Shown piece by piece: positions 3,557 through 22,700 of a DNA stretch of 36,882 nt. Source of the DNA: Lachnospiraceae bacterium (GTDB lineage: Bacteria; Bacillota; Clostridia; Lachnospirales; Lachnospiraceae). The position numbers and the translations under genes are program-made. Numbering within the stretch: the first letter of the stretch is position 1; each line of letters begins with the position of its first letter. The stretch covers positions 1-36,882 of the forward strand of contig JAFTXF010000094.1 of the NCBI GenBank assembly GCA_017461685.1. The letters are read 5' to 3'. The notes below the pieces were generated by a model. The model was given only the letters and a program-made list of their open reading frames with translations. It had not been told where the DNA came from and searched no databases.

Positions 3557-3586
3557 AATAATGCTCCTCCCATTATAAATGCTATC

Positions 3587-3791
3587 TAGGCGTTTGCGAA
3601 ACTCGATGGCTGCCGGCGGAAGTGATATATATTCCGGTAGAGGGGCCTTGAAAAGCGCCGGTCCTTAGCGAAGCAAGGTGATAACCGCAGTCTGAGCTTA
3701 GTACCGCTGCAGCTTTTCACGGAGCGGGAGCGTCCCCGAGACAGAATATATATCACTTCCGCCGGCAGCCACCGAGTTTCGCAAACGCCTA
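3587..3791. repeat. long-stem structured element, copy A (candidate ncRNA or MITE-like stem-loop repeat)
   Basis: Arms 3587-3634 and 3744-3791 are complementary at 47 of 48 positions. The core 3642-3737 is 81 percent identical to 10141-10236. Confidence 0.75.
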
Positions 3792-3858
3792 TGATTAGGT
3801 AATTCCCGAGGTCGTACCATTGGATTTCGGAATCGCCTGTTCGTATACTTTATATACT

Positions 3859-3887
3859 ATTGTACATGATTTGCGGAGCTATGAAAA
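3859..3887 (-). promoter_or_regulatory. candidate sigma-A promoter reading toward element A and argF
   Basis: On the minus strand: TTTTCA, 17 nt, TACAAT, with TG one base upstream of the -10 (extended -10). Confidence 0.3.
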
Positions 3888-3973
3888 GGGAAAAATATTA
3901 AAATGATAAATTCATCGGAAGAAAATTCCTGCTCCGCTCAGAAGAAATTGCCGTTTCACTCGGAAGAAGTGTA

Positions 3974-4002
3974 TAGACAATTAAAAATACCGGTGTTATA
4001 AT
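3974..4002 (+). promoter_or_regulatory. candidate promoter of the cytidylate-kinase-like/ppaC/recJ unit
   Basis: TAGACA, 17 nt, TATAAT, with TGn extended -10. Confidence 0.45.
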
Positions 4003-4089
4003 ATTTTTACAAATATACAAAAGGAATATGGACATGACTGGTTTATCATGTACCATAACCTATAAAATATTGTAGTAGGAGGTAAGGTT

Positions 4090-8222: not shown

Positions 8223-8225
8223 TAC

Positions 8226-8260
8226 AAAAGACCAGGTTGCCCTGGTCTTTTGCATTTTCT
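8226..8260 (+). terminator. intrinsic terminator after recJ
   Basis: 11-bp stem AAAAGACCAGG / CCTGGTCTTTT with loop TTGC, followed by a T-rich tail. Confidence 0.8.
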
Positions 8261-8443
8261 TATGAGGGGGAGATAGTGAATGTATCAACTATCTGTAATA
8301 TACTATAACGTAAAAATGTGTTAGAAATATGTCCATTTCATAAAAAACAAATGAAGTTTCTTAAGAAAGGCGGAAGAAAATATGAAGGAAAGGTTGGAAT
8401 AATATATAATTTCTTAAACTCGTCATGCATCCCAATCCCCTGG

Positions 8444-8472
8444 TTGAAAAATCCTTACAAGTGTGGTATGAT
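8444..8472 (+). promoter_or_regulatory. candidate murE promoter
   Basis: TTGAAA, 17 nt, TATGAT, with TGn extended -10. Confidence 0.45.
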
Positions 8473-8516
8473 AATTTAGTATTAAAGTCGGTTAGTATGC
8501 CTATCAGGAGGTTAAT

Positions 8517-10079
8517 ATGAAACTGAACACAAATTTAACTTATTTACTGAAGAGTTTAGAATATACAGTTTTGCAGGGGAATGTGGAAGGTGAGGTTACC
8601 GCTGTAGTGAATGATTCCCGCAAGGTATGCCCGGGATGCTTGTTTATCTGCATTTCAGGTGCTGTTTTTGACGGCCACGCATATGCGGGAGAGGTGGCAG
8701 ACAAGGGAGCAAAGGTACTGATTGTTGAAAAGCCTGTGGAGGTACCAGAGGATGTCACAGTCATTCAGGTGGCAGATACCCGTTATGCCATGGCTTTTAT
8801 TTCGGCTGCGTACTTTGACCATCCGGCAGAAAAGCTAAAGACCATTGGTATTACCGGTACAAAAGGCAAGACTACCACAGCGTGTCTGGTGAAGGCTATT
8901 TTAGAGAATACCGGTTTAAAGGTAGGATTGATTGGAACCATTGAAACGATTATCGGCGACAGACATATTCCTGCTGCCAATACTACACCGGAATCTTATA
9001 CTTTACAGCAGTATTTTGCAGAGATGGTGGAAGCAGGTCTGGATGCAGTCGTTATGGAAGTGTCCAGTCAGGCACTTATGCTTCACAGAACCCAGGGGTT
9101 TATATTTGATTATGGTATTTTTACGAATCTGGAGCCGGACCACATCGGACCGGCTGAGCATGAGAGCTTTGAGGAGTATTTAGCATGTAAGGGGCGTTTG
9201 TTTAAGCAGTGCCGGGTAGGCATTGTCAACGGGGATGACAGTCATGTGAATGAAGTGATTGCCGGACATACCTGCAGTATTGAGCGCTACGGCTTTGGTG
9301 ATGCCAATGATTTACAGGCGGTGAATGCCCGTCTTGTGAAGACACCGGGCCGTCTGGGAGCCGCTTTTGAGGTGGTGATTCGCCAGCCGGGACGGGTGAT
9401 GGGTGAGAAAGTTAAAAGCTATTTAAAAGGGAGCTGCAATCAGAGAGAAATTCCGGCAGATTCCTATATTCTGTCCGCACAGATTGCATCTCCGGGCAGA
9501 TTCAGTATATATAATGCCATGACTGCCATTGCCATTTGTCTGCACTTTGGTGCCGGTCAGGATGCCATCAGGCAAGCACTTTTAGAGGCCAAGGTGAAGG
9601 GACGAATCGAGATGGTGCCGGTTTCTGACGATTTTACATTGATGATTGATTATGCACACAATGCTATGTCTTTGGTGAGCCTGCTTACTACCTTAAAGGA
9701 GTATGAGCCGAACCGCCTGGTTTGTCTGTTTGGCTGCGGAGGCAATCGCTCCAAGCTTCGCCGTTATGAAATGGGCGAGGTCAGCGGCAGACTGGCAGAT
9801 TTGACAATTATTACGTCAGACAATCCACGCTTTGAGAAGCCTCAGGATATTATAGACGATATCAAGGTCGGAATCGCCAAAACTGACGGCGCATATGTGG
9901 AGATTTGTGACCGTAAGGAAGCCATTTGCTATGCTATAAAGCATGGCCAGCCGGGGGATATTATCGTGTTAGCCGGCAAGGGGCATGAGGATTATCAGGA
10001 GATTGAGGGCGTGAAGCATCCAATGGATGAGCGCGTGCTGATTACAGAAGTCCTTACGGAAGAGAATATGTGTAAATAG
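8517..10079 (+). CDS. murE: UDP-N-acetylmuramoyl-L-alanyl-D-glutamate--2,6-diaminopimelate ligase
   Basis: GITGTKGKTTT P-loop and DNPR motif (the meso-DAP-adding type); 520 aa. An apparent ~25-30 aa extra segment lies around residues 288-318. Confidence 0.85.
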   Translation: MKLNTNLTYLLKSLEYTVLQGNVEGEVTAVVNDSRKVCPGCLFICISGAVFDGHAYAGEVADKGAKVLIVEKPVEVPEDVTVIQVADTRYAMAFISAAYFDHPAEKLKTIGITGTKGKTTTACLVKAILENTGLKVGLIGTIETIIGDRHIPAANTTPESYTLQQYFAEMVEAGLDAVVMEVSSQALMLHRTQGFIFDYGIFTNLEPDHIGPAEHESFEEYLACKGRLFKQCRVGIVNGDDSHVNEVIAGHTCSIERYGFGDANDLQAVNARLVKTPGRLGAAFEVVIRQPGRVMGEKVKSYLKGSCNQREIPADSYILSAQIASPGRFSIYNAMTAIAICLHFGAGQDAIRQALLEAKVKGRIEMVPVSDDFTLMIDYAHNAMSLVSLLTTLKEYEPNRLVCLFGCGGNRSKLRRYEMGEVSGRLADLTIITSDNPRFEKPQDIIDDIKVGIAKTDGAYVEICDRKEAICYAIKHGQPGDIIVLAGKGHEDYQEIEGVKHPMDERVLITEVLTEENMCK

Positions 10080-10083
10080 TTAT

Positions 10084-10288
10084 GGTAAGGGATTGTGGAA
10101 CCTGACAGCAGCCTGCGGTTGCAATATATGTTCTGGCTGAAGGGCCTTGAAAAACGTCGGTCCTTAGCAAAGCAAGGTGGCAGCCGCAGCCTGAGCTTAG
10201 TACCGTTACGTATTTTCATGGAGTGAGAACGTCCCTGAAGCAGAACATATATTGCAACCGCAGGCTGCCGACAGGTTCCGCACTTACC
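10084..10288. repeat. long-stem structured element, copy B
   Basis: Arms 10097-10135 / 10241-10279 pair at 37 of 39 positions. There is an outer helix 10084-10089 / 10283-10288. The core 10141-10236 is homologous to copy A, in the same orientation. Confidence 0.75.
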
Positions 10289-10314
10289 CGGGAAAAAATC
10301 AGAAAGGAGAGGGT

Positions 10315-12543
10315 ATGGAAATTTATGCAGACATCATTGTAGACATTACCCATGAAAAATTAGACCGCCCTTTCCAATACCGGATTCCGGAGGCGCTTTC
10401 GGAGGAGGTCACGGTAGGATGTCAGGTGATAGTACCGTTCGGTGCTGCCAATAAAATCATCAGTGGTTATTGTATTGGTATTAGCTGCGAGACGGATTTT
10501 GACCCGGCCAAAATCAAAGATATTGTCTCCGTAAAGGAAGGCAGTACCACCATGGAAAGCCGGGAGATTCTGTTGGCAGATTTTATCAAGCGCCGCTATG
10601 GCGTGACCATGATTCAGGCATTAAAGACGGTTCTGCTGGTGAAGCATACGGTAAAGGCTATTGTCAAAAAGAGCATTTGCCGTGGTAAGCCGCTTAAAGA
10701 ACTGCAAAGCTACTACGATACCATCAAGGAAAAGGGCAATCAAAGAGCCAAAGCCAGATTGTTGGAAGCACTTTTAGACAGGGAAGAGATTCCACTGGAG
10801 GAGGTAAACCATAAGCTGGAAATCGGTGCCGGTACGATAAAGCTTCTAGAAGAAAGCGGTTATATTGCACTGAAAACCGAAAATCAATACCGAGATCCTG
10901 TGCATATGGAACATATACAGCAGGAGGGCTTTGCATTAAGTGCGGAGCAGCAGCATATTGTAGATGTCATTATCGGAGCGCTTGATGACTGTGGCAAATA
11001 TTACATTCACGGCATTACAGGAAGCGGCAAGACAGCTGTTTATATAGAATTAATTGAGGAAATACTGAAAAGAGGACGGCAGGCGATAGTGCTGATACCG
11101 GAGATTTCTCTCACCTATCAGACTTTAAAGAGGTTTTACGCCAGATTTGGCAGCAAGGTATCGGTGATGAATTCTACCCTGTCCGCAGGCGAAAAATACG
11201 ACCAGATGCAAAGAGCCATGAACGGTGACATTCAGGTAATTATCGGTCCTCGCTCAGCTTTATTTACACCATTTCCAAATCTGGGACTGGTGATTATAGA
11301 CGAAGAGCACGAGCCATCTTATAAGTCAGAGCAAAGTCCCAAGTATCATGCCAGAGAGGTGGCGGAGGAGGTTGCAAGGCTGAGCGGTGCCAGTTTGGTA
11401 TTTGGCAGTGCCACTCCTTCTATGGAAGCTTATCAGCAGGTAAAACAGGGGCGGTTTCAACTTTTTAAATTAGAAAAGCGTCTCACAGGAGGTGCTCTTC
11501 CAAGGGTTGAGATCGTAGACCTGAGGGAAGAATTGAGAAATGGAAACCGCAGTATTTTCAGCCTGAGCCTTCAGCAGAAGATGGCCGAGCGGCTGCAGCG
11601 AAGAGAGCAGTTTATGCTGTTTTTAAACCGAAGAGGGTATTCCGGCTTTATCAGTTGCAGAAGCTGCGGACATGTGATGCGGTGTCCTCACTGTGATGTG
11701 TCTCTTTCAGAGCACCGGGATGGCAGGCTGCATTGTCATTATTGCGGTTACAGTGCCCCGGGCGTGAAGCTTTGTCCGGAGTGCGGTTCCAAATATATTT
11801 TGGGTTTTAAAGTGGGCACCCAGCAAATCGAGGAGAAATTAAAGGAGTTATTTCCTGAGATTCGGGTACTGCGCATGGATGCAGACACCACCAAGACCAA
11901 GGCCAGCTATGAGCAGATTCTATCGGCTTTTGCCGGAGGGCAAGCCGATGTACTGTTAGGAACCCAGATGATTGTTAAAGGGCATGATTTTCCGGGGGTG
12001 ACTTTGGTAGGCGTATTGGCTGCGGATATGTCTTTGGCATTTGGAGATTATAGAAGCGGCGAGAGAACCTTTCAGCTTTTAACCCAGGCGGCAGGCAGAG
12101 CAGGGCGCGGTAAGCTTCCCGGCGAGGTGGTGATTCAGACCTATCAGCCGGAACACTACAGCGTACAGTTTGCGGCAGCTCAGGATTTTGAAGGCTTTTA
12201 TGAGCAGGAGATGGCTTACAGAGAACTGATGCAGTATCCGCCTGCAGGGCATATGATGGCCATTCAGATATTTGGGGAAAAGGAAGCCAGGGTAAAAGCC
12301 CTTGCGGAGGATTTCGGAGATTATCTCAAGGTTTTAACGAAGAACAAACCGATTCAGGTATTGGGGCCGACTGTGGCCGCCATTGCTAAGATAAAAGACA
12401 TTTATCGGTATGTGATTTATGTAAAAGCGGCAAAAACGGAAACACTATTACTATTAAAAAATGCACTGGATGAACGAAAGATAACAATGCATAGCGGGCA
12501 GGAAATCGTGCAATATGATTTTGACCCCGTAAATACATTTTAA
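10315..12543 (+). CDS. priA: primosomal protein N' (replication restart helicase PriA)
   Basis: GITGSGKT Walker A, DEEH box and a Cys-rich zinc region CRSCGHVMRCPHCDVSLSEH...CHYCG...CPECGS. ATG 10315 follows GGAGAGGG; the track start 10252 (TTG) lies inside element B. Confidence 0.85.
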   Translation: MEIYADIIVDITHEKLDRPFQYRIPEALSEEVTVGCQVIVPFGAANKIISGYCIGISCETDFDPAKIKDIVSVKEGSTTMESREILLADFIKRRYGVTMIQALKTVLLVKHTVKAIVKKSICRGKPLKELQSYYDTIKEKGNQRAKARLLEALLDREEIPLEEVNHKLEIGAGTIKLLEESGYIALKTENQYRDPVHMEHIQQEGFALSAEQQHIVDVIIGALDDCGKYYIHGITGSGKTAVYIELIEEILKRGRQAIVLIPEISLTYQTLKRFYARFGSKVSVMNSTLSAGEKYDQMQRAMNGDIQVIIGPRSALFTPFPNLGLVIIDEEHEPSYKSEQSPKYHAREVAEEVARLSGASLVFGSATPSMEAYQQVKQGRFQLFKLEKRLTGGALPRVEIVDLREELRNGNRSIFSLSLQQKMAERLQRREQFMLFLNRRGYSGFISCRSCGHVMRCPHCDVSLSEHRDGRLHCHYCGYSAPGVKLCPECGSKYILGFKVGTQQIEEKLKELFPEIRVLRMDADTTKTKASYEQILSAFAGGQADVLLGTQMIVKGHDFPGVTLVGVLAADMSLAFGDYRSGERTFQLLTQAAGRAGRGKLPGEVVIQTYQPEHYSVQFAAAQDFEGFYEQEMAYRELMQYPPAGHMMAIQIFGEKEARVKALAEDFGDYLKVLTKNKPIQVLGPTVAAIAKIKDIYRYVIYVKAAKTETLLLLKNALDERKITMHSGQEIVQYDFDPVNTF

Positions 12544-20534: not shown

Positions 20535-21431
20535 ATGCAGGAGATGTTTAAAGGTAAAATTACCAAGGGAATTGCAGGATTTTATTATGTGTACATACCC
20601 GGAAAGGGGATGTACGAGTGCAAGGCCAAGGGTATTTTCCGTAAAGATAACGTAAAGCCTCTGGTTGGAGATGATGTTTCCGTACAGGTTCTGTCCGAAG
20701 AGGAAATGACCGGTAATATATGCGAAATATTGCCGAGAAAGAGCAGCCTTATCCGTCCGGCAGTGGCCAATATTGACCAGGCCCTTGTGATATTTGCGAT
20801 TCGCAAGCCGGATGTGAATTTGAATCTGCTGGACCGTTTTCTGATTCAAATGGAGCAGCAGGGACTGGAAACGATTATTTGTTTTAACAAGGCTGATCTG
20901 GAGAATACGGAGGGACCAAGCAGTCAAAAGCTGGCGGAAATTTATTCCAAAGCAGGCTATCGGACATTGGTAGTCAGTGCTACCGAGGATGTCGGCATTG
21001 ACCGGATACTTGCCTGCTTAAAAGGAAAGACTACGACGGTAGCAGGACCAAGCGGCGTGGGCAAGTCTACCCTAATTAACCGGTTGCAGTCCGATACCAG
21101 GATGGAAACCGGCAGCATCAGTACAAAGATTGAGCGCGGCAAGCATACTACCCGCCACAGTCAGCTGATACCGATTTCAGAGGATACCTATATTCTGGAT
21201 ACGCCGGGTTTTAGTTCTCTGTCGGTTTTCGATATGGAGAAGGAGGAACTGGAGGCCTATTACGAGGAATTCCAGGCATTGACTGCAGGCTGCAAGTTTA
21301 CCGGTTGCTCCCATATTCATGAACCGGTGTGCGGTGTAAAGGAGGGGCTGAAAACGGGACAGGTCAGTGCAGAACGCTATGAGAATTACAAGCTGATATA
21401 TAGCGAGCTTGCGCAGCGGAAGAAATATTGA
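20535..21431 (+). CDS. rsgA: ribosome small-subunit-dependent GTPase A
   Basis: Circularly permuted GTPase (NKADL, GPSGVGKST) and a zinc knuckle CKFTGCSHIHEPVCGV. Confidence 0.85.
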   Translation: MQEMFKGKITKGIAGFYYVYIPGKGMYECKAKGIFRKDNVKPLVGDDVSVQVLSEEEMTGNICEILPRKSSLIRPAVANIDQALVIFAIRKPDVNLNLLDRFLIQMEQQGLETIICFNKADLENTEGPSSQKLAEIYSKAGYRTLVVSATEDVGIDRILACLKGKTTTVAGPSGVGKSTLINRLQSDTRMETGSISTKIERGKHTTRHSQLIPISEDTYILDTPGFSSLSVFDMEKEELEAYYEEFQALTAGCKFTGCSHIHEPVCGVKEGLKTGQVSAERYENYKLIYSELAQRKKY

Positions 21432-21503
21432 GTCAAACAGAGGTTAAGGGGCGTATTTTCGCACCACTTTCCGACGATATATCGTCCGTTGCTCCACTTT
21501 ATT

Positions 21504-21621
21504 ACACGGCGAGATTTTTATCAAATTATAGGGGCAGACATATAGGCCGAAAACACGCTCATCGCGAATCATTTTCGGCCTATATGTCTGCCCCTATAAT
21601 TTGACAAAAATCTCGCCATGT
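21504..21621. repeat. 50-bp near-perfect inverted repeat with 18-nt loop
   Basis: Arms 21504-21553 / 21572-21621 pair at 48 of 50 positions. The loop is CACGCTCATCGCGAATCA. Confidence 0.8.
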
Positions 21622-21773
21622 ATTGATAGCCCTTCCATGATTTACCGGTTTATTTTTCCTCACCATTGTGCTAGAATACTCCTTGTAACAAATACGTAAC
21701 AATTCTGTAATAATAACGAAATGAATATACGAGATAGATTGTTACAAAGAATCACAAAGGAGGTATTTTCACA

Positions 21774-22700
21774 ATGAGGAAAATCACATATTTGGCTACA
21801 GCAGCATTAATGGGGGCTACAATCATGGCGACTCCGATGCAGGCGATGGCAGCAAGACCGTTACAGGGGGTAGGTACGAATCGGACAAACATCACAAGTA
21901 TTTTTTCGGGATGCGATGTAATAACGGGAAATTCCAATTTCCTGAAGGATTATCTGGGAAATTGCCAGTGGGGAAATGTACAAATTATTACTATTCCGTG
22001 TTTGCCGGGCAACCAACCGGAAACGGAAGAACCGGGCGCGGAAGACAATAACCAACCTAATAAACCGGACGTGGAGGATGACAATCAGACCAATAAGCCG
22101 GATGTGGAAGACGATAATCAGTCAAATCAGCCGGGTGTAGAGGATAATAATCAGACCAATAAACCGGACGTGGAAGATAATAACCAGACCGGTCAGCCGG
22201 GTGTAGAGGACAATAATCAGACCAATAAGCCGGATGTAGAGGACAACAATCAGTCCAACAAGCCGGGGGTAGAAGACGATAATCAGTCCAACAAGCCGGG
22301 CACAGAGGATTCTGAGCAGTCCATGCATGCTTATGTACTGCGTGTTGTGGAACTGGTAAATGAAGAGCGTGCAAAGGCAGGTTTGAATCCCCTTACCATA
22401 AAAGAAGATGTGACTGAAGCGGCTCAGGTACGTGCAGTGGAGTGTACCACTATGTTCTCTCATACCAGACCGAATGGAACAAGCTTTGTTACGGCACTGA
22501 AGGAGGCAGGTGTCAACTACCGCGGAGCCGGTGAAAATATTGCCTGGGGACAGAAGACTCCGGAACAGGTTATGGAGGCCTGGATGAACAGTTCGGGACA
22601 CCGAGCCAATATCTTGAATGAAAAATACACATCTATTGGTGTGGGTTACTACCAGAACGCATCCGGCGTGAATTACTGGTCACAGTTGTTTACTTATTAA
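21774..22700 (+). CDS. secreted CAP/SCP (YkwD-like) domain protein with an acidic repeat linker
   Basis: Signal-peptide-like N-terminus, an 11-aa repeat block, and a C-terminal CAP motif set (NEERAKAGLNPL...GENIAWGQ...WMNSSGHRANIL...GVGYY). AAAGGAGG RBS. Confidence 0.75.
   Translation: MRKITYLATAALMGATIMATPMQAMAARPLQGVGTNRTNITSIFSGCDVITGNSNFLKDYLGNCQWGNVQIITIPCLPGNQPETEEPGAEDNNQPNKPDVEDDNQTNKPDVEDDNQSNQPGVEDNNQTNKPDVEDNNQTGQPGVEDNNQTNKPDVEDNNQSNKPGVEDDNQSNKPGTEDSEQSMHAYVLRVVELVNEERAKAGLNPLTIKEDVTEAAQVRAVECTTMFSHTRPNGTSFVTALKEAGVNYRGAGENIAWGQKTPEQVMEAWMNSSGHRANILNEKYTSIGVGYYQNASGVNYWSQLFTY
22032..22322 (+). repeat. 33-nt in-frame tandem repeats (about 8.8 units) encoding NKPDVEDDNQT-like units
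   Basis: Units start at 22059, 22092, 22125, 22158, 22191, 22224, 22257 and 22290, with a partial unit from 22032. Confidence 0.85.

Follow-up and report, generated by a model that had tools for sequence, protein, structure and literature searches.

Correia elements in Neisseria, ERIC/IRU in enterobacteria, bcr1 in the Bacillus cereus group and RUP in pneumococcus are bacterial miniature inverted-repeat transposable elements (MITEs) that form long hairpins in RNA or DNA. These 100-250 bp elements are non-coding, carry terminal inverted repeats (TIRs) and target-site duplications (TSDs), occur in many intergenic copies with long stems, are often co-transcribed with their neighbours, and are mobilised in trans by the transposase of an insertion sequence (IS). 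We count all of these properties as shared by the 205-nt element described here, which occurs twice (copies A and B) in a 36,882-nt stretch of Lachnospiraceae bacterium DNA (GenBank assembly GCA_017461685.1, contig JAFTXF010000094.1, positions 1 to 36,882; hereafter the window). Unlike them, its TSD is 8-12 bp rather than TA or TTTAT, its target is tied to a Shine-Dalgarno (SD)-like motif, and its interior holds a ~100-nt covarying core with a three-way junction that is common to elements with other ends.

TnGBS and ISLre2-type DDE elements insert 15-17 bp upstream of sigma-A promoters. The present element resembles them in that a DDE transposon settles a set, short distance away from a signal for gene expression instead of following a simple target consensus; the signal here is, unlike theirs, a ribosome-binding-site motif and not a -35 box, and the transposase family differs. 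REPINs are also dispersed intergenic hairpins (~100 nt or more) with compensatory stem changes and a mobilising gene elsewhere. They are, however, moved without TSDs by RAYT, an IS200/IS605-like Y1 HUH enzyme, and we rejected a REPIN/RAYT assignment because TSDs are present here and the ends match those of a DDE-type IS.

We conclude that the 205-nt element is very probably a MITE, that is a non-autonomous DNA transposon, of an IS1182-like IS, moved in trans. A core-pattern scan of species-representative genomes returned 27 loci in three Lachnospiraceae metagenome-assembled genomes (MAGs), 21 of them in JAZRLF01. A covariance model of the core added diverged copies within those loci, giving ~22 copies in MAG JAZRLF01, and 68 related copies were found overall across genomes and metagenomes. 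The original prediction, made from the letters of the window, had described a two-copy element, implied a novel stand-alone structured RNA and kept a local duplication as a fallback; the copy numbers overturn the first and the last of these, and a MITE takes the place of the stand-alone RNA. It had also reasoned that many copies with TSDs and a transposase-bearing parent would point to an ordinary MITE. Copies, TSDs and a parent with the same 16-nt ends, duplication length and motif were indeed found, whereas the core is not derived from the IS, covaries, and occurs in hairpins without these ends, so that part of the element is not covered by the ordinary description.

Both copies folded far better than dinucleotide shuffles (z = -14.3 for copy A and -10.6 for copy B), and core motifs occurred in the window at these two places only, chance predicting 0 occurrences. 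The two copies visible in the window would also fit a random palindrome or a local duplication without a wider family, but with 68 related copies found in genomes and metagenomes and no shuffle folding as well as either real copy, we consider the probability of this negligible. The pairing counts of the original prediction were reproduced for the arms of copy A (3587-3634 with 3744-3791, 47 of 48 positions) and copy B (10097-10135 with 10241-10279, 37 of 39), as was the gapless 78 of 96 identity between cores 3642-3737 and 10141-10236. The general anatomy, a long, locus-diverged stem capped by a conserved multi-helix core, was upheld. The parts of the two copies and the SD motifs beside them are as follows.

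3587-3791, plus strand: copy A, whole 205-nt element (assessed by inverted repeat, direct repeat and fold z; member of the 28-copy alignment)
3587-3602, plus strand: copy A left TIR, TAGGCGTTTGCGAAAC, 16/16 identical to the left inverted repeat (IRL) of the IS in L094, L073 and L162
3776-3791, minus strand: copy A right TIR, whose reverse complement is TAGGCGTTTGCGAAAC
3603-3636, plus strand: copy A left arm interior, 5' strand of the closing stem P1 (alignment, pair table)
3742-3775, plus strand: copy A right arm interior, 3' strand of P1
3637-3741, plus strand: copy A core (covariance model, alignment, pair counts, compensatory changes in diverged copies)
3564-3571, minus strand: argF SD, GGGAGGAG, 16-23 nt outward of the copy A left end; target-associated motif
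10086-10290, plus strand: copy B, whole element, between murE and priA, with degenerate ends TAAGGGATTGTGGAAC and GTTCCGCACTTACCCG
10136-10240, plus strand: copy B core, with the same helices as copy A
10303-10313, plus strand: priA SD, AAAGGAGAGGG, 13 nt outward of the copy B right end

Copies of the type found in JAZRLF01 (JAZRLF-type copies) begin with the TAGGCGTTTGCGAAAC end, followed by a ~20-nt variable arm segment that is still complementary to its partner, a conserved AT-rich inner arm and the conserved core. The 16-nt end, which contains a small palindrome, GTTTGCGAAAC, is kept across these copies and in copy A and is degenerate in copy B. In the 28-copy alignment, the middle of the P1 left-arm interior is hypervariable among copies and its inner part, ATATATATTCCG, is conserved. 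No open reading frame (ORF) of at least 60 aa, the minimum used for the ORF listing, lies wholly inside either element; ORFs 9995-10219 (minus strand) and 10252-12543 (plus strand, the priA frame from an upstream TTG) enter copy B from the flanks. The core, with its covarying helices, aligns in the manner of non-coding sequence.

Among the 25 copies whose ends are defined, 9 are abutted by exact direct repeats of 8-12 nt, such as TTGATTTGTAA, TACCTATATGTT and TTAAGACGAACA; in controls with mismatched flanks the rate was 0.8%. Automatic detection of stem boundaries and TSDs was unreliable on the metagenomic families, and TSDs were therefore tested only where ends were defined. Presence of copy A varies between strains. 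Contig L188 encodes a 100% identical ArgF behind the same 30-nt leader and has no element, while L189, from another sample, carries it. L188 keeps the band7-argF neighbourhood of its relatives L190 and L192. The gene order in these three contigs is nfeD-band7-terminator-argF, and the window has a divergent cytidylate-kinase-like gene past copy A (3792-4089). Since the sequence past copy A is unrelated to L188, copy A lies at a synteny breakpoint, and for that reason it lacks a duplication; this suggests that a rearrangement occurred at, or was mediated by, the repeat. A candidate independent insertion upstream of an orthologous argF, in L013, was rejected because the gene there is a 38%-identical paralogue, probably pyrB-like judging from that identity.

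Copy B is an older insertion than copy A. JAZRLF01 (L009) shares this insertion, including its degenerate end TAAGGGATTGTGGAAC, and L199 carries an element at the same locus; in L200 (PriA 81% identical) the murE-priA spacer is 46 nt long and has no element. Copy B and its L009 orthologue are identical at 183 of 205 positions (89%), while the flanking murE and priA differ at 47-50% of their 4-fold degenerate sites. Conservation is just as high (89%) in the adjacent recJ-murE spacer, and we therefore do not claim selection in situ on the murE-priA copy. The two window copies are old or rearranged insertions whose duplications have not survived.

The parent was found by scanning viral contigs with a 15-mer of the element end, a search that gave mostly chance matches. 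At more than 10 IMG/VR loci the match marked one terminus of a unit of 1,727-1,768 bp, with an inverted TAGGTAATTGCGAAAC at the opposite terminus. This unit contains a single ORF of 490-507 aa that matches the Pfam transposase N-terminal domain DUF772 (1e-12, 48.2 versus a cut-off of 23.1) and has the motif Y-x2-R-x3-E-x6-K. Both ends of copy A are identical to the IRL of the unit at 16 of 16 positions, and GAAACTCG and GCAATnTnTG are common to the element arm and to the IS region close to the right inverted repeat (IRR). TSDs of 10-12 bp flank 5 of 10 IS copies. Copies of the IS lie at the following places.

L202, 386-2151: IS copy on Butyrivibrio proteoclasticus pCY360
L203, 371-2122: IS copy on a Roseburia sp. 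831b plasmid
L073, L094, L138, L140, L146, L152, L162, L167 and L173: IS copies on IMG/VR contigs

Transposase homologues were found on B. proteoclasticus pCY360 (80% identity), on the Roseburia plasmid (64.5%) and in Clostridium felsineum. The plasmid tables list no gene under the transposase match, and IS ends flank the Butyrivibrio and Roseburia homologues. On pCY360, the L202 copy is closely preceded by a second IS right end at a distance of 14 bp (CATTTATTTATAAA), and the same 14 bp follow the right end of L202, which suggests two IS copies in tandem. Homologue clusters from gut metagenomes have thousands of members, one of them named as a Blautia transposase, and mostly sit on ~1.7-2.2-kb contigs, as expected of a repeat; the parent IS is very common in gut Lachnospiraceae. 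With the IS1182 family it shares DUF772, a weak DDE_Tnp_1_6 match, the IS1182 transposase as its top NCBIfam hit, the YREK-type motif, a length of ~1.75 kb and inverted ends of ~16 nt, as a distant branch that scores far below the NCBIfam equivalog cut-off. We thus regard it, from its sequence features, as an IS1182-like DDE insertion sequence and not as a confirmed IS1182 member. IS1272, an IS1182-family element of staphylococci, is reported to insert into inverted repeats without TSDs (PMC5678879); unlike it, the parent IS makes regular TSDs of 10-12 bp.

Element and IS lie at similar sites. Of 25 JAZRLF-type copies, 19 have one end at a distance of 24-35 nt from an SD-preceded start codon; among intergenic positions of these loci the share is 8.9% (binomial p ~1e-15); copy B of the window and L009 being one insertion, the independent count is 18 of 24. 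An AAGG/GGAG-type motif is found 12-20 nt outward of one end in 23 of the 25 copies, compared with 18% of positions taken at random. In copies with clear duplications, ~5-10 nt (mostly 8) separate the duplication from the start of the motif, as read off the flanks. For the IS, an AAAGGAG-like motif lies 13-20 nt outward of IRL in 10 of 10 copies and on the IRR side in 0 of 10, and the transposase gene reads away from it. In three loci of the 205-nt element (L003, L016 and L024) the motif is present without a following gene start; such copies point to recognition of a DNA motif rather than to selection on translation. The end of the element that faces the motif is the left one in ~15 copies and the right one in 7, that is, ~15 copies opposite to the adjacent gene versus 7 in the same sense, and orientation relative to the majority gene strand is unbiased (9:11). 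The element has IRL-like sequence at both ends, which would explain why either end can face the motif and orientation is not fixed. The downstream genes, which include argF, pyrB and priA, are unrelated; on account of this and of the two orientations, we rejected a riboswitch or other cis-regulatory leader. Our literature searches found no description of oriented, AAAGGAG-proximal (SD-directed) insertion, and nothing relevant on MITEs in Lachnospiraceae.

We propose that the DDE transposase of the ~1.75-kb IS moves the element in trans. It would bind the sub-terminal GTTTGCGAAAC palindromes, recognise an SD-like DNA motif on the IRL side, cut with a stagger of ~10-12 bp and insert. The IS moves without a core, so the transposase does not need one in cis. 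As a consequence of this target choice, every copy would land in a 5' untranslated region (UTR) or an operon spacer, and some fraction would be transcribed in the plus sense, as are copy B and its orthologues, which are co-oriented with murE-priA. Our best guess for the core, held with low confidence, is a structured RNA cargo that would be expressed by read-through from 5' UTRs and intercistronic spacers and could be freed when RNase III cuts the ~50-bp stem.

Several observations weigh against the MITE interpretation. Flanking direct repeats are not recognisable at copy A or B, as had been noted at the outset. Core-bearing hairpins with unrelated ends exist: those from metagenomes have ends without this TIR motif, and no TSDs were detected at their crudely estimated boundaries. 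TIRs are all that a MITE requires, yet here conservation extends to ~50 bp of complementary arm and to the core fold. No copy of the IS lies in the 36.9-kb window or in the fetched JAZRLF loci and, as the IS has no core, the element is not a simple internal-deletion derivative of it. The IS ORF reaches 78 bits against a cut-off of 270 with NCBIfam transpos_IS1182 (7e-22) and 18.9 against a gathering score of 25.1 with Pfam DDE_Tnp_1_6, and assignment to a transposase family is therefore approximate. Finally, mobilisation in trans and recognition of the SD motif are both deduced from sequence comparison.

The core is a genuinely conserved, covarying fold. From the outside inwards it consists of the long closing stem P1, an internal loop able to form tandem G·A pairs, a short P2 and a tight three-way junction. 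From this junction extend a rod-like P3, which contains a U·U mismatch and another tandem G·A and ends in a small tip hairpin, and a P4 of 2 bp that is closed in every copy by a GNRA loop (GGGA, GAGA, GGAA, GAAA, GCGA or GCAA). The helices are placed as follows.

3644-3645 with 3734-3735, plus strand: P2 of copy A (GGGG/CCCC at 3642-3645/3734-3737 in this copy)
3646-3654 with 3714-3722 and 3657-3662 with 3703-3710, plus strand: outer helices of P3, copy A
3664-3669 with 3696-3701, tandem G·A 3670-3671 with 3694-3695, and 3672-3673 with 3692-3693, plus strand: inner P3, copy A
3677-3679 with 3684-3686, plus strand: tip hairpin of P3, copy A
3724-3725 with 3730-3731, GNRA loop 3726-3729, plus strand: P4, copy A
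10163-10168 with 10195-10200, plus strand: P3c of copy B
10223-10224 with 10229-10230, loop GAGA, plus strand: P4 of copy B

In an alignment of 68 copies, which was fitted to the covariance model, 94.3% of cells were paired, versus 70.8% after shuffling and 29-51% with slid partners. Double-sided changes occurred in 29 of 36 pairs; both collection search patterns imposed invariance on the central helix CGGUCCUUAGC / GCUUAGUACCG. Of the four parts in which the core had originally been drawn, the GGGG/CCCC closing helix and the interrupted helix at 3649-3662 and 3703-3719 are supported by covariation in the 68 copies. The hairpins at 3663-3678 and 3680-3692 are not; they are replaced by an irregular helix, 3664-3673/3692-3701, capped by 3677-3679/3684-3686, and the GNRA hairpin 3724-3731 is added. 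Three diverged copies change GAAGC...CUGAG to GAGAC...UCGAG, which is compensatory for the long helix and breaks the hairpin at 3663-3678. A fourth changes the tip hairpin from GGC...GCC to AGC...GCU, using the GG that the same earlier hairpin requires. GNRA loops and tandem G·A pairs occur on the plus strand only, and one specific single strand is therefore under selection; counts of G·U versus A·C were 23 versus 14 in the core and 54 versus 50 in the arms.

The core lies outside known RNA families, as had been suspected: Rfam 15 gave zero matches at gathering score over the whole window and, at E<=10, chance-level matches only for the window copies and two diverged relatives. One of these, to RT-18 (E = 2.7-5, 15 bits versus a gathering score of 41), is at chance level, and a retron msr-msd was rejected because the window has no reverse transcriptase and the copies are dispersed without a conserved neighbour. 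A self-cleaving ribozyme was also rejected, the hammerhead CUGANGA core being absent on inspection. No match to the core was obtained by blastn against plasmid and phage collections, by a core-pattern scan of viral contigs (0 matches) or by running the core model on the IS loci. A looser core pattern applied to metagenomes returned 40 further loci, hairpin elements of Clostridia whose stems are unrelated to those of the window and which lack the IS-type end motif. These core families are also over-represented near start codons, in both orientations (14 of 32 within 15-50 nt, versus 12%). Some members have large expansions, with extra hairpins replacing or extending P3a'/P4 (L039 2090-2310; L040 1681-1851, with a 41-nt insert), and L050, L052, L025, L027 and L007 each contain a pair of copies no more than a few kb apart. 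The wider core-bearing family is thus also repetitive and structurally plastic.

What the core does is therefore weighed separately from how the element moves. It is possible, although we lean against it, that core and long stem are a structured non-coding RNA family with its own function, perhaps acting in trans, that was captured between IS ends, a reading compatible with MITE mobility. The strong covariation, the RNA-typical motifs on the plus strand only (GNRA in every copy, two tandem G·A), the tolerated helix expansions of L039 and L040, and the occurrence of the core with unrelated arms in many metagenomic Clostridia contigs and not in the IS all argue for it, as does the 89% identity of copy B to L009 beside 4-fold sites that differ by 47-50%, but the recJ-murE spacer is just as conserved. 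No conserved promoter or intrinsic terminator lies within the element and no gene is consistently linked to it. Orientation is random or biased against the adjacent gene (9:11 against the majority strand, ~15 opposite versus 7 same), so that host read-through would make the plus strand in only about a third of copies, and the wobble counts of core and arms carry no clear strand signal. A combined reading, which we put forward tentatively and judge rather unlikely, is that core and closing stem are an independently selected RNA or single-stranded DNA (ssDNA) module, distributed across Clostridia, that was packaged between two IRLs of an SD-homing IS and thereby expressed.

The main alternative to an RNA cargo, which we consider improbable, is that the fold acts as ssDNA: extrusion of the palindrome into a hairpin or cruciform, perhaps on the lagging-strand template, would bring the two ends together and aid their synapsis or capture by the transposase, and the core would form a stable cap resistant to nucleases. 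Compensatory changes maintain pairing along the whole arm, where a transposase should need only the ends, and the arms show no RNA-like wobble strand bias. GNRA and GNA loops and tandem G·A pairs are stable in DNA too, as in d(GCGAAAGC)-type mini-hairpins. A relative from the IS1182 family, IS1272, reportedly takes inverted-repeat structures as its targets (PMC5678879). The autonomous IS, however, moves without such a core, and orientation is unbiased (9:11) when set against the predominant gene strand, which serves as a proxy for replication direction. To our knowledge, no single-stranded intermediate is described for this class of transposase. We give still less credence to the idea that the host has domesticated the element to act in cis on mRNA, for example as an RNase III site, 5' stabiliser or translational regulator, with a position that reflects selection rather than target choice. 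It would account for the constant 24-35 nt from start codons, often within operons, for the retention of the murE-priA copy across species and for the ~50-bp stem in any read-through transcript. Yet the 1.75-kb IS, which cannot be a leader element, shows the same motif-proximal position (10/10), copies sit at SD-like motifs without a gene start (L003, L016, L024), both orientations occur, and copy A is polymorphic between strains with identical ArgF. Inspection of the element for a promoter or terminator gave only weak matches to consensus, in which the spacing was wrong or the predicted start site fell downstream of the SD, and an outward-promoter role was rejected.

The newness of the MITE thus lies in its conserved, non-IS core and in the SD-proximal, oriented target choice; the MITE itself is ordinary and defines no new RNA class. 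SD-directed, oriented target selection by an IS1182-like transposase, if true, would be a previously undescribed specificity, and one that could be exploited experimentally. Such a natural transposon seeking 5' UTRs would repeatedly rewire the expression of housekeeping operons in abundant gut Lachnospiraceae. The combined reading, if true, would make the element a mobile structured RNA that exploits the target choice of a transposon for its expression. A covarying fold that the transposase can dispense with raises the question of what a selfish element gains from an RNA or DNA cargo.

Genes across the window have housekeeping functions and, in line with the original prediction, no transposase, reverse transcriptase, integrase or Cas gene was found in it. 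argF is on the minus strand (start codon 3554-3556), with copy A 30 nt upstream of its start; copy B occupies the murE-priA spacer, 6 nt past the murE stop (10079) and 24 nt before the priA ATG (10315). The longest priA ORF starts at the TTG within the right arm of copy B (10252-10314) and encodes 763 aa, versus 742 aa from the ATG at 10315; automatic annotation could likewise mis-start other genes that adjoin the element. Among the 67 loci compared for neighbouring genes there was no conserved neighbour or recurrent transposase. The largest ORF cluster near the element covers 11 of the 67 loci and was matched with no tool; our guess is a common paralogue family such as ABC-transporter ATPases.

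One locus, L011 (JAZRLF010000058.1, at a contig end of a public MAG), was dropped from the set as an assembly chimera: a partial element is followed by adapter-like AAGTCGGAGGCCAAGCGGTCTTAGGAAGACAA, which we take to be BGI/MGI sequencing-adapter sequence, and then by the element again. The chimera is an assembly artefact at a repeat. An element that breaks metagenome assemblies and marks the argF synteny breakpoint is relevant to MAG quality and to genome rearrangement.

The recJ-murE spacer (8223-8516, 294 nt), 89% identical to L009 while 4-fold degenerate sites differ by ~50%, had no Rfam match at gathering score and may hold a conserved leader or regulatory RNA for murE. A second, unrelated hairpin of 120 nt (21503-21622; near-perfect, with 51-nt arms 96% complementary, an 18-nt loop and fold z = -16) is flanked by rsgA (20535-21431) and a CAP-domain gene (21774-22700). 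A 27-nt motif from its arm was not found in any of the 201 fetched loci, and it may be another palindromic repeat element. Within the ORF at 21774-22700 (CAP / cysteine-rich secretory family), a 33-nt unit is repeated seven times in tandem (21997-22326); these units encode an NQ(T/S)NKP(D/G)VEDD-type repeat and are a coding repeat, neither CRISPR nor a non-coding array.

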